A stretch of 64,000 nt of DNA from an uncultured Mycoplasma sp. (GTDB lineage: Bacteria > Bacillota_I > Bacilli_A > RF39 > UBA660), in NCBI GenBank assembly GCA_947642635.1, contig CANRTI010000005.1, positions 13,842 through 77,841 on the forward strand. The letters run 5' to 3'. Below are positions 51,001-64,000 of the stretch, piece after piece (the stretch's first letter is position 1; each line of letters starts with the position of its first letter). Position numbers: made by a program.

Positions 51001-54000
51001 AGGACGCATAGGTCGATCAATCATTCTTGCTGCCAATGTTGCATTATCTGTTGGTCTTCCTTCTCTTTTAATAAAACCACCTGGTATTTTACCTACTGAA
51101 TATAATTTTTCATTATATAAAACCATTAACGGAAAAAAATCTGATAATAAATTGGCATTTTTAGATACTACCGCTGTACTTAATAAAACTGTATCATTAA
51201 AACGCACTAAGATGCTACCATGTGCTTGTTTAGCTATCTCTCCATGTTCTACAACAATTTTTCTTCCATAAAAGTCTAATTCAAATACTTTTTTCATTGT
51301 AACCTCTTCTCTTTCTTAAAAAAAGACACTAAAAATCAATAGTGCCCTTATTTTCTTAAATTTAATTTTTTAATTACTTCACGATAGCTAACTACATCAT
51401 TATCTTTTAAATAACTAAGTAATTTTTTTCTTCTACCAACTTTAATAAGTAATCCTCTTTTTGAATGATAATCATGTTTATGTTCTTTCATGTGTTCAGT
51501 TAAATCATTAATTTCTTTAGTTAAAATCGCAATTTGTACTTCAGCAGAACCACAATCTTTTTCATTCTTAGCAAATTCTTTAATAATTTTTGCTTTTTCT
51601 TCTTTTAATAAAGCCATTTCTAATCTTCCTTTCTAATATAATCGGTTTAAACTTGGACAAAAACCGGAAAACTTTTTTATCTAAGTCAAAACTTCTTTAT
51701 AATTATATTACAAAAATACTAAATTGTAAACAAAATGTCTCTATTTTATAACTATTATCTAGAAATTTTAAAAAAGCAATTTAAGTTTATAAAAAAATAA
51801 TTAGCTCATCTCACTAATTATTTTCCAATTTTTATTTTTTTCGAATTTTTCTCACTAATTTTGCCAATACTTTTTGTGAACCACCAATATAACTTACAAA
51901 AGAACAAATCAATATTACTGATGCCCCAATAGCTACTTTAGCTACTAATGGCATTTCTTTTTTATGAGCTACTTCTTTTTTAGGAATCAATGTATAAACT
52001 GCTTTTTTATTAAAAGAATCTTCCACTACAATACTTATAATATCATCATTCTCAAATATTTCTACTTTATTATTATCATCTAATGGTAACGCTTCTAACT
52101 CAAAACCTTTACTTTTAATATAATAATAAACATAAGTATCTTTATTAAATTTTTTATCTAAACTTCCCTTTTTAATATTAATACTTTTAAGATATAGATT
52201 CCCTTCACTCATAAGTTCTGGATTATTAGCTCTTATTACATTAATTGTATAAACTCTTTCTTCTCCATTTTCAGCAACAACTGTAAAAACAAACTTATTA
52301 TATCCCACTTCTAAAGTTTCTGGTAAATCACTATTTATTGTCGCACTACCATCTTCTGCTGTTGCAAGCAAATTTATTCCTTCAATTTCATAAGGTAAAT
52401 AAATATAATACTTAGTTTTTTCTTTATCAAACAATGGTGATAACATTCCAACATCTATGGTAATACTACTTAAATAATTATTACTACTTTGAACTTTATT
52501 AGGATCACTTTCACGAGTTACTTTAATCGTATATGTTCTAACACTACCATTTTCAGCCGTTACTTTTACAGTAACATTTCTAGTTTCACCTGCAACCAAA
52601 TTATTTTGATTAGAAATACTTACTTTGGCTTTACTATCTTTAGCTTTCGCTTCAACATTAATATTTTCAACACTAAATGGTACACTAACTTCATAATTTA
52701 AAGTATTTTGATTAAATCCTGGTCGTAAATTAGCTCCTTCAATTTTTAAACTAGCTAAATAATTATTATTACTTCCAGTACTAACAACCGGAGTATTACT
52801 ACCACTACTAGGATTATTAGAAGACGTTGAACCACCATTATTTCCTCCACTTGGTGTATTGGTCCCACCGTTTGGATTTGATGGCTCAGTAGGACTAGGA
52901 GTCGACGGTGTGGGATCAGGTTGCTGTACTGGTTCCTTTACTATCACTGTCTTACTTGGATTATTACTACTAACAATTGACGTATCTCCAGCTGACACTT
53001 CACTAGAAGAAATACTTATAGTAGTTGAACCACTTTTTAAAGCTTTAAAAGATAAACGCATTAAATTAGTTGTTCCTAAAGGAATAAAATCTTCTTCAGA
53101 ACCACCAAACCCGCCAATTTTTAAAGTACTTGTGTTATATTTTAAATAAAACGGTGCTAAGTTAGTTGTTTTAACTAATTCCAAAACACTTTTATCATAA
53201 CCAAGTCTTGCTTCAACTCCAGAAACTCCCCCAGGAGCATCGCTAGTACTTAATTGAAAAATAATATCAAAAGACTCCCCAACTGCAGCTTCTCCTTTTC
53301 CATTCAAACTTAAATTCGCCGAGCTAGCAAATACATTTGTAATAGAAAAAAGAAAAAGATAAACTGATAAAAGAATATAAGGAATTGTCTTTTTCTTGCC
53401 CTTTATCATAATCTATCCCTTCTTTGACTTTCTTTTCTCTTCATTTCTTTTTTCAATTGATTAATTTCATCTTGTTTTAATAACAATTTTAATTTATCAG
53501 CATTTTTAGTTTCCATACCTTCTCGAATAGCTCTAATTAATTCATCTTTAGTAATTGTTTCATCATAATCAAAATCTGCATCTTGAACATTATAATCAAT
53601 TACCTTCTTTTGTTCAGTTGGAATTTCTTTTACTCCTTGATTAAAGTTTCCATAAACTGTATCATCATCAGTTCCATTTTTAGAACCAAAGTTAAATTCT
53701 GGCTTAAATTCAATTACTGGAGTTGCAGTAGTTGCTCCTGCTAATGCTGGAGTTTTCTCTTTACTTTTTCTTAGATAATATAACAATAAGAAGATTAAAC
53801 CAAGTAAGCATAAACATAAAGTTAAATACATAATAAATTGTGCTACAGCCATTCCAAAGATTGAATTAGTTGGTTTATCAACTTCAATTTGATAAATTTT
53901 ATTAAAGTTATTTTCATCAGTTACTTTAATTAAAACTGTATTTTTACCAGGTTTTAAATTAGTATTACCAATAATTTCTACTTTCGCTTTTGCATTTTCT

Positions 54001-63000: not shown

Positions 63001-64000
63001 TCAAAATTAAAATTATCTTTATTATATTTAAGATAAACATTAAACAAAGTTGCATCTGCAGTTTTACCATCAATTAACTTAATTACAGGTGCCATAAGTA
63101 TTAAATCTCCAGCATGAACCTCAGTATCTATGGTAATTTCTTCTTCTGAATCAGCTCTATAAACATCATATATCCAGCTACTAGATAAATCCTCTACATC
63201 ATAAATATTATTAAAATATTCACTTCCCACTTTATAAAATTTAAAGCTTATCTCATATTTAGGGTCTTCATCACCAATTGTTATATCATCTGCCTTTACA
63301 CTTAAAGGAAGAACTGTCATAACAATTCCTAATAAAATAAATAGTATTTTCTTAATTTTTAAACCATACTTCATAAGTAACACCTATACTCTCTTCTATT
63401 CTATACAATTATCTTAGCACACTTATTTTTATTAATCTATATTTGTTGACACCGATCGACATCATTTGACACATTACATTTACAACTTCTTTGTTAAAAA
63501 AATTCTCTTACGAGAACTTTTTAATTTAGATTTTTTAAAAAACCTTTAACATAATTATCTAAAGATAATTGGTCAGCTCCATTTACTTTGCCATCTTTCG
63601 TTATATCAGCTGCTAATGTTTGATATTTATCAAATTTAGCTAATTTAACAATATAATTATCTAATGATAAAGAATCTGCCCAATTAACTCTTCCATTACC
63701 ATTAATATCCCCTCTTACAATTATTCTTAATGTATCTAATACTTCCCCATTTTTTTCTAATTTCATAACCATACCATTACCAACATATTGATTTAAATCA
63801 CTAACTAAATTACCATTAAAATCATATACATTTAAATAATTACTTTCATTTACAAAAGAATTAATAAATGTATTAATTGTTGTATATGGGTCAATTCCAA
63901 TAACATAATCTTCGTCACTATTTCTAATTATTTCATAAGATTTAATTAATGTATCAGATAATGGCATTACATTATTATCTAAAACTATTTCATTTAATTC

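Follow-up and report, generated by a model that had tools for sequence, protein, structure and literature searches.

What could a bacterium build from cohesin and dockerin modules when no glycoside hydrolase is encoded beside them? The question is raised by a locus at positions 51832–64000 of a 64,000-nucleotide stretch of DNA from an uncultured Mycoplasma sp. (contig CANRTI010000005.1 of assembly GCA_947642635.1), hereafter the window. The locus encodes a giant protein of 1893 amino acids (aa), two membrane anchors of 797 and 525 aa, a lone secreted cohesin, and a small dockerin-bearing protein that runs past the window edge. An earlier note, made from the sequence alone, had proposed a self-contained docking system that assembles a giant adhesin or an S-layer-like coat. 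We consider it likely that these genes specify an enzyme-free, membrane-anchored cohesin–dockerin surface assembly. The best explanation overall, held with a little less assurance but still favored, is that the assembly is hierarchical and forms a fiber, probably an adhesin. The enzyme-free display of giant cadherin-like proteins fits the original proposal, while the S-layer-like coat is unsupported.

All genes of the locus lie on the minus strand. The open reading frames (ORFs) are located where the earlier note had placed them, and its count of five co-oriented genes becomes six with an Rpn/PDDEXK_2 gene that it had overlooked:

63521–64000, minus strand: small cohesin–X–dockerin gene, 3' part, cut by the window edge (Dockerin_1 and PDB dockerin match).
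57702–63383, minus strand: giant protein, 1893 aa.
57208–57699, minus strand: lone secreted cohesin, 159–163 aa (Pfam Cohesin below cut-off, and homology to the cohesin of the 797-aa protein).
57154–57174, minus strand: terminator-like hairpin followed by a T-run (consensus match only).
56101–56967, minus strand: Rpn-family PD-(D/E)XK nuclease or putative transposase gene, 288 aa (PDDEXK_2, TIGR01784).
53406–55799, minus strand: anchor 1, 797 aa (Cohesin, Cadherin-like, transmembrane helix, tail).
51832–53409, minus strand: anchor 2, 525 aa (Cohesin, Cadherin-like, transmembrane helix).

We judged domain matches against the Pfam gathering scores, which are 24.1 bits for Cohesin (PF00963), 22.9 bits for Dockerin_1 (PF00404), and 24.2 bits for Cadherin-like (PF12733). 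The 525-aa anchor matched Cohesin at 33.7 bits and Cadherin-like at 70.9 bits; the 797-aa anchor matched Cohesin at 28.7 bits, with its N-terminus scanned alone, and Cadherin-like at 171.5 bits. The giant reached 292 bits for Cadherin-like. In all three proteins the cadherin-like units are tandem repeats, and a locus-specific hidden Markov model (HMM) resolved three of them in the 525-aa anchor, five in the 797-aa anchor, and 16 in the giant. Hydropathy and motif checks assigned to both anchors an N-terminal signal sequence and a single C-terminal transmembrane segment. The 525-aa protein has, in addition, a linker rich in Pro, Thr, Ser, Gly, and Asn between cohesin and repeats, and a short basic tail after its transmembrane helix. 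The anchor features are as follows:

about 55284–55694, minus strand: class-A cohesin of the 797-aa protein, after the signal peptide.
about 53874–55262, minus strand: five cadherin-like repeats of the 797-aa protein (Pfam, locus-specific HMM).
about 53763–53864, minus strand: transmembrane helix of the 797-aa protein, residues 646–679 (hydropathy).
about 53409–53762, minus strand: conserved cytoplasmic tail of the 797-aa protein, about 120 aa.
about 52930–53298, minus strand: class-A cohesin of the 525-aa protein, after the signal peptide.
about 51976–52758, minus strand: three cadherin-like repeats of the 525-aa protein (locus-specific HMM).
about 51880–51954, minus strand: transmembrane helix of the 525-aa protein, residues 486–510 (hydropathy).

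Pfam and hydropathy thus agree with the architecture first read from the sequence (signal peptide, one cohesin, cadherin-like repeats, C-terminal membrane anchor), including the cytoplasmic tail of the larger protein, which had been put at about 130 aa and measures about 120. The absence of conventional wall anchors was also borne out: Pfam found no SLH domain in the locus proteins, and a search for LPXTG-like motifs found none. A transmembrane anchor in place of SLH or sortase attachment would fit a Mollicutes-like lineage. The cohesins of the two anchor types are 35% identical to each other, and a profile of these class-A cohesins, searched against the PDB, led to cellulosomal cohesins.

The third class-A cohesin is the lone secreted one. 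It scores 19.3 bits against Pfam Cohesin, below the cut-off, yet it is a clear homolog of the 797-aa protein's cohesin (37% identity, E=9e-30) and has an N-terminal hydrophobic segment. Its start is probably the ATG at 57687, behind a GGTGG Shine-Dalgarno sequence, which gives 159 aa and not 163.

Two proteins of the locus had been described as ending in dockerins. For the edge-truncated small protein this is clear, with 43 bits for Dockerin_1, a PDB dockerin match (3ul4_B, E=9e-8), and two intact calcium loops, DINGNGRVNWAD and DITKDGKVNGAD. The giant is a weaker case. Its C-terminus matched no Pfam dockerin even at E≤10, while its best PDB match is a dockerin (2y3n_B, E=0.022), and dockerins make up four of the five matches that follow. 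The region can be aligned in every column with the small protein's confirmed X-dockerin, and two homologs of the giant pass the Dockerin_1 cut-off (P0018 with 23.4 bits, P0084 with 31.4 bits). On these three grounds we take the giant's C-terminus to be a dockerin. Its first F-hand is intact (DTNGDGKWTMND, loop DTNGDGKWT), and the second (EVNTIAGLTMND, loop EVNTIAGLT) lacks calcium ligands. The second repeat, called degenerate in the earlier note, has therefore lost its calcium loop but not its helix, TMNDAVVLAD, an exact duplicate of the first.

These differences define two dockerin classes. Family-wide, the giant type (class G) has two near-identical helices, and the small type (class S) is asymmetric and ends in a conserved S-L/I-N motif. 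Both classes are kept throughout the family, as are two cohesin classes, and family members retain canonical calcium loops. The X module ahead of each dockerin has no PDB relative by sequence and nothing meaningful in Pfam. The features of the giant and of the part of the small protein within the window are:

63291–63383, minus strand: signal peptide of the giant.
62619–63290, minus strand: CohN, a divergent cohesin-fold module of the giant, aa 32–255 (AF2, Foldseek, profile).
58143–62612, minus strand: stalk of the giant, 16 cadherin-like beta-sandwich repeats, aa 258–1747 (Pfam, HMM).
about 57900–58142, minus strand: X module of the giant (alignment with the small protein).
57705–57899, minus strand: class-G dockerin of the giant (PDB match, alignment, homologs).
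about 63725–63961, minus strand: X module of the small protein.
about 63548–63712, minus strand: class-S dockerin of the small protein (Dockerin_1).

The same X-dockerin module also ends a group of proteins of 2773–4274 aa (P0013, P0017, P0058, and the products of L089 813–9890 and L093 1–9893) that carry ALK/LTK-type glycine-rich domains together with as many as 29 cadherin-like repeats. Use of the X-dockerin connector thus extends to further giant surface proteins.

What stands at the other end of the giant? The roughly 225 aa after its signal peptide have a homologous counterpart at the N-terminus of the small dockerin protein. The full-length form of the latter, about 400 aa, is represented by P0010, which is 97.5% identical over the 159 residues within the window, and in full-length homologs the N-terminal domain aligns with that of the giant. 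By sequence, neither single copies of this domain (CohN) nor a five-sequence profile matched anything in Pfam or the PDB, and an hhalign comparison of the early profile with class-A cohesins returned nothing. An AlphaFold2 (AF2) model from a 21-sequence alignment reached pLDDT 87.5 and pTM 0.86, and the top 50 PDB structures retrieved with it by Foldseek were all cohesins, with target-normalized TM-scores mostly of 0.4–0.66. The best match was the ScaC cohesin of Ruminococcus flavefaciens (5lxv_C, E=3.3e-7, TM 0.63); it was followed by a cohesin-like module of Clostridium perfringens (2jh2), and modules of C. perfringens occupied ranks 3–5. A first model, of the whole 373-aa small protein from a 10-row alignment, had a pLDDT of 51.7, and its fold matches were still mostly cohesins. 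The 21-sequence profile pointed the same way: all six of its PDB matches were cohesins, though individually weak (E 0.2–1.1), and hhalign now aligned the GD…YD…LE core of CohN with class-A cohesins (E=4.6e-4). One CohN homolog, the small protein P0043, gave a sub-threshold Pfam Cohesin score of 20.9 bits. We conclude, from the predicted structure above all, that the N-terminus of the giant is a cohesin-fold module.

The locus therefore holds five cohesin-fold modules (three class-A, two CohN) in addition to its two dockerin classes, and not the three cohesins first counted, because both dockerin-bearing proteins also start with one. For the same reason these two proteins should be seen as adaptors and not as simple cargo. 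The giant itself has no membrane or wall anchor that hydropathy or motif checks could find.

To collect relatives, we ran a full HMMER search of 1.84 billion representatives with the CohN profile. The profile had taken in X-dockerin columns, and most of its 4391 matches were dockerin proteins; we used only matches covering the N-domain, which formed about 12 clusters of giants (1500–2130 aa) and about eight of small proteins (350–400 aa). Word-indexed protein searches recovered only two proteins with the lone cohesin, two with the giant's N-domain, and seven with the N-domain alignment. Scans with the class-A cohesin alignment of the genome contig and metagenome contig collections, and with the N-domain alignment of the latter, yielded no confirmed relative.

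Which plug fits which socket? We compared three haplotypes of the same species, namely the window and two metagenomic contigs, L001 and L007:

Window versus L001: lone cohesin (163 aa), 797-aa, 525-aa, and Rpn proteins, 100%.
Window versus L001: giant repeats 98.6%; giant X module 100%; class-G dockerin 100%.
Window versus L001: giant CohN 56.6%; small protein X module plus class-S dockerin 61.6%.
Window versus L001: repeat beside the 797-type cohesin, 100%.
Window versus L007: giant repeats 94%, with three repeats fewer; X module 62%; class-G dockerin 45%.
Window versus L007: giant CohN 57% (L007 is of the L001 type); small protein X module plus class-S dockerin, L007 likewise of the L001 type.
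Window versus L007: lone cohesin 80% (frameshifted in L007); 797-type cohesin 61%; adjoining repeat 95%.

Apart from the length of the giant (1893 versus 1629 aa), divergence among these near-identical strains is limited to the connector modules (CohN, cohesins, and X-dockerins), and it comes in two linked sets. The class-S dockerin changes with the giant's CohN, and the class-G dockerin with the class-A cohesins. Such paired divergence is expected of cognate, co-evolving partners and suggests, at the level of sequence, that the giant docks on the anchors and the small protein on the tip of the giant.

The predicted architectures can be assembled accordingly into a model. The giant reads signal peptide, CohN, 16 cadherin-like repeats, X, and class-G dockerin; the small protein of about 400 aa reads CohN, X, and class-S dockerin. 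The 797-aa and 525-aa proteins would be type-I membrane proteins, each presenting a class-A cohesin on a stalk of five or three repeats. Into these cohesins the X-dockerin of the secreted giant would plug, so that its 16 repeats extend outward and place the CohN head several tens of nanometers off the membrane, if each repeat adds about 4 nm. The head would then capture the class-S dockerin of the small protein or, in related loci, the glycine-rich and cadherin-like giants of about 3000 aa that bear the same dockerin class. With its own CohN, the small protein could lengthen the chain or have another binding partner. The lone cohesin might compete for or buffer the giant's dockerin, or be a decaying duplicate. 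The fiber would serve adhesion or surface display, its tip varying by cassette exchange as expected of an exposed adhesive or antigenic tip, and the 797-type tail would be linked to a cytoplasmic partner. This specific wiring has, in our estimate, slightly less than an even chance of being correct.

Several points weigh against this interpretation. A serious one is that the members of each co-varying set are also DNA neighbors (the small gene's 3' end lies next to the 5' end of the giant gene, and the giant gene's 3' end next to the cohesin genes). The conserved repeats are natural sites for crossover, and a single recombination tract between them could give the pattern by linkage, without co-evolution. 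The giant's dockerin, devoid of calcium ligands in its second loop and failing Pfam, may bind weakly or differently. CohN spans about 225 aa against 140–170 aa in classical cohesins, to which it is 8–16% identical, and its ligand could be something other than a dockerin. Finally, our view covers 64 kb of the genome, and dockerin-bearing enzymes may be encoded elsewhere.

The same modules could also be connected differently. The anchors might bind class-S dockerins, perhaps one class each, while the class-G dockerin binds the CohN of another giant to form head-to-tail filaments. Each giant in the family does carry both a CohN and a class-G dockerin, and the near-identical helix pair of class-G dockerins is a hallmark of dual-mode binding. 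The conservation of two anchor types, with cohesins 35% identical, alongside two dockerin classes would also suit one anchor per class. The haplotypes argue otherwise: between the window and L001, CohN has fallen to 56.6% while the class-G dockerin of the same protein remains at 100%, which is hard to reconcile with a CohN–class-G pair, and in L007 it is the class-A cohesins, and not CohN, whose divergence accompanies that of the class-G dockerin. We regard head-to-tail filaments as unlikely.

Among distant homologs of the giant (N-domains 20–27% identical), the core order of giant, 797-like, and 525-like gene recurs, which fits a self-contained docking system:

L089: protein of 3025 aa with ALK_LTK_GRD, cadherin-like, and dockerin domains; giant; 706 aa; 549 aa.
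L090: unannotated gene of 897 aa, truncated where the contig begins; giant; 706 aa; 473 aa, truncated where the contig ends.
L093: two proteins of about 3000 aa like that of L089; giant; 807 aa; 554 aa; Flp/Tad pilus operon.
L088: CohN–dockerin protein of 264 aa; giant; 888 aa; and, further on, a PDDEXK_2 gene.

The translations identify the 706-aa and 888-aa proteins as orthologs of the 797-aa anchor (signal peptide, cohesin, repeats, transmembrane helix, tail) and the 549-aa protein as an ortholog of the 525-aa anchor. In L093, genes for Flp, TadE, a ParA-like ATPase, T2SSE, and two T2SSF proteins (19396–24270) follow directly after the triad, placing two adhesion-type systems side by side.

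Could these loci nonetheless organize enzymes? In such a scaffold, resembling a cellulosome, amylosome, or mucinolysome, CohN, the class-A cohesins, or both would recruit dockerin-bearing glycoside hydrolases encoded elsewhere, and the repeats would bind carbohydrate, a role suggested by the Pfam entry PF12733. Cohesin–dockerin systems of gut Firmicutes usually do organize enzymes, as in amylosomes (PMC4611034) and mucinolysomes (PMC12997984), and the visible part of this genome amounts to 64 kb. Against this, and in line with the earlier note, we found no glycoside hydrolase or carbohydrate-binding module (CBM) in the locus or the scanned ORFs of the window, none in five related loci, and none, nor any catalytic domain, in 16 sampled proteins that share the X-dockerin module. 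The domains of those 16 are Cadherin-like, Big_2, BspA-type LRR, TIG, FG-GAP, ALK_LTK_GRD, Fib_succ_major, or Cohesin, and one has 29 matched cadherin-like repeats in 4274 aa. Moreover, all five cohesin-bearing proteins have a single cohesin, so a multi-enzyme scaffoldin is absent here. Of three features looked for as marks of a cellulosome (a multi-cohesin scaffoldin, dockerin-bearing enzymes or CBMs, and SLH or sortase attachment), none was found in the locus, and we do not class it as a cellulosome. An enzyme scaffold of any of these kinds appears very unlikely.

It is equally improbable that the modules no longer pair and that each protein is an independent surface adhesin whose cohesin-fold and EF-hand-like modules are structural or bind, for example, host or glycan ligands: the giant's dockerin is degenerate and without a Pfam match, CohN is very divergent, the lone cohesin carries a frameshift in L007, L004 and L007 have missing or truncated anchors, and cohesin-fold domains occur in adhesion molecules without dockerin partners (TMEM132, PMC6030884), but the giant has no anchor of its own and is always encoded beside membrane-anchored cohesin proteins, the dockerin helices remain internally duplicated, family members keep canonical calcium loops, and strain divergence is confined to cohesin and dockerin modules that change in sets.

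Returning to the membrane-anchored fiber, its base deserves attention. When the 797-aa protein is compared with its distant orthologs (L088 8913–11579 and L089 14981–17101), the tail is 51–53% identical and the stalk 50–56%, whereas the cohesin, the fastest-evolving part, is only 27–39% identical. The tail contains two near-invariant motifs (KPEFNFGS-N--DDD and DE-ITK-ELI-AI-E…KLK-LLKQ-E-NQ-KK), and sequence searches of Pfam and the PDB returned no relative of it. Its conservation suggests a link to a cytoplasmic partner.

A broader reading, speculative and on balance rather unlikely to hold in full, is that of a modular-fiber family in uncultured Mollicutes-like gut Bacilli with three linked properties. 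First, cohesin–dockerin pairs would act as exchangeable connectors joining a membrane anchor, a cadherin-like stalk of about 60 nm, and a variable tip. Second, with cognate pairs encoded side by side, recombination would swap matched cassettes, varying the tip and leaving the assembly intact. Third, the tail would couple the fiber to a partner inside the cell, which might be the cytoskeleton, the machinery of cell division, a motility system, or a signaling protein, among others; if so, this coupling would be a bacterial analog of integrin- or cadherin-type transmembrane linkage.

How the genes are expressed can be judged from their spacing. The lone-cohesin gene starts 17 nt past the stop codon of the giant, and the stop codon of the 797-aa gene overlaps the ATG of the 525-aa gene as ATGA. 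The hairpin at 57154–57174 probably ends the transcription unit of the small, giant, and lone-cohesin genes. Close spacing, overlap, and hairpin together suggest two transcription units, this one and the 797–525 pair, with the Rpn gene between them.

The lone cohesin and the Rpn gene, at its present position, are restricted to the lineage of the window. The lone-cohesin gene is frameshifted in L007 and absent from the distant loci, and the protein may therefore be dispensable. The 288-aa Rpn product scores 44.8 bits against PDDEXK_2 and 52.0 bits against TIGR01784. In strain L004 (3850–5537), homology to the window is lost precisely where this gene ends, and an ABC transporter comes next, so that the Rpn gene marks a rearrangement breakpoint. 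In L007, the 797-like gene breaks off after its first repeat and gives way to unrelated DNA. A paralog of the Rpn gene, 25% identical, lies at 33858–34691 of the window, and the PDDEXK_2 gene near the distant locus L088 is at 12829–13569.

Whose surface is this? The window has a GC content of about 28% from 24 kb onward and encodes SpoIIP, miaA (32986–33852), rpsO, and pnp, with the locus beside rpsO–pnp. The polynucleotide phosphorylase (PNPase) is 74–78% identical to those of gut metagenome-assembled genomes labeled uncultured Tenericutes or Bacilli and 73% identical to that of Mycoplasma sp. CAG:877. PNPase kinship, GC content, and gene content identify the host as an uncultured low-GC, Mollicutes-like member of the Bacilli. 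Its closest PNPase relatives do not have the locus adjacent to pnp; the neighbors of related loci are prfA or a Tad pilus operon.

A phage-like integrated element occupies positions 1–24000, at 34–40% GC versus about 28% for the host. It encodes capsid, portal, and large terminase proteins, a DNA methylase, an amidoligase, a DUF927/CHC2 primase, an SNF2 helicase, and a serine recombinase (21504–23279), and adjoins genes for tRNA-Thr (24053–24128) and tRNA-Val (24136–24212). Its predicted rRNA adenine dimethylase (Erm/KsgA-type, 17411–18322) could confer macrolide resistance. We rejected a prophage origin of the cohesin–dockerin locus, as the element lies at 1–24 kb with a different GC content and the locus beside rpsO–pnp.

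Between the two lies a candidate diversity-generating retroelement (37134–41808, minus strand). It comprises a reverse transcriptase of 374 aa (37134–38258, RVT_1 62.7 bits), an intergenic template-like repeat rich in Asn codons (about 39480–39610), and a variable-like repeat (about 40033–40147) near the 3' end of a 613-aa ORF without a Pfam match (39967–41808). Mismatches between the two repeats fall mostly, not all, at template adenines. We considered this element as a cause of CohN hypervariability and rejected it, for the only match of the template-like repeat is in the 613-aa gene, at about 40.0–40.1 kb, with none in the locus. A second, inverted template-like copy, 87% identical to window positions 39393–39653, lies 500–760 bp upstream of the small dockerin gene (L001 466–728 and 996–1092, L002 29–125, L007 60–156), about 1.2–1.5 kb past window position 64000, where the contigs end. 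It is either part of a second retroelement or one arm of an inverted-repeat pair flanking about 25 kb that include the whole locus. Adjoining the reverse transcriptase, a 129-aa ORF (38582–38971, minus strand) matches MutS domain I only (27.2 bits) and resembles a remnant of mutS; a full-length copy was not seen in the vicinity, although miaA is present. In the interval from the retroelement candidate to the locus, ORFs of 924 and 668 aa (43443–46217 and 46219–48225, plus strand) and 287 aa (41851–42714, minus strand) have no Pfam match at the thresholds used; they adjoin a regulator with two helix-turn-helix domains (42857–43288).

What does the locus add to the picture of cohesin–dockerin pairing? 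Best known as the glue of enzyme complexes, this pairing appears here as the sole attachment device of an enzyme-free giant fiber in a little-known gut lineage without cultured members. Strain-level module swaps allow predictions of how the five cohesins pair with the two dockerin classes, the conserved tail points to a transmembrane linkage so far undescribed, and the divergent cohesins, which escape HMM searches, need structure prediction to be found. If the model is confirmed, modular non-covalent connectors build and diversify bacterial adhesins, and new orthogonal cohesin–dockerin pairs become available for protein engineering.

The underlying principle of non-cellulosomal, non-enzymatic docking is already known. 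The closest parallel is R. flavefaciens, in which ScaB and the cellulose-binding protein CttA dock through their X-dockerins onto the ScaE cohesin. There, as here, a single-cohesin anchor holds a non-enzymatic X-dockerin adhesin or adaptor, and adaptors combine a cohesin with a dockerin. The best structural match of CohN, 5lxv, is a cohesin of this species; both 5lxv and 2zf9, another of the fold matches, are structures related to the R. flavefaciens system. The differences are equally plain. ScaE is attached to the wall by sortase via LPXTG, whereas the anchors here have a C-terminal transmembrane helix; the R. flavefaciens system serves a cellulosome rich in glycoside hydrolases, whereas no enzymes were found in this locus, which is distinguished further by its cadherin-like stalks and the conserved cytoplasmic tail on an anchor. 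R. flavefaciens also has an autonomous single-cohesin protein (PDB 4n2o), like the free 159-aa protein described here, although the fold match of 4n2o is to CohN and not to the lone cohesin.

In C. perfringens, glycoside hydrolase and toxin complexes (2jh2, 2o4e, 2vo8, 2w1n) likewise use such pairing outside cellulose degradation, and CohN finds some of its best fold matches among their cohesin-like modules. Those modules belong to secreted enzymes, whereas the modules of the present locus are parts of membrane anchors and of structural proteins built from repeats. Giant adhesins of the Gram-positive and Mollicutes type share with this system long tandem beta-sandwich stalks, a variable tip, variation in repeat number, and locus plasticity; they have a covalent or own anchor, whereas the fiber here would attach non-covalently through its dockerin.

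Non-cellulosomal cohesin and dockerin modules have long been known (Peer et al. 2009, as cited in PMC10066038). For the anchors, the nearest description is that of "non-SLH anchoring scaffoldins" with one cohesin and a C-terminal transmembrane segment, predicted in H. luporum, C. cibarium, and Lachnoclostridium sp. MSJ-17; in the passages describing them, their partners are given as unknown, and one or more of the hosts are presumed not to degrade cellulose (PMC11557425). The 525-aa and 797-aa proteins have the same two hallmarks, a likeness of layout. In those passages the scaffoldins are single observations, reported with no operon, cadherin-like stalk, tail, cohesin-tipped giant, or strain co-variation. 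What is new here is the combination, which we did not find described in the literature searched: a conserved operon family in an uncultured lineage, with cadherin-like stalks throughout, a cohesin-tipped giant adaptor, conserved-tail anchors, no enzymes, and cassette-like exchange of connectors.

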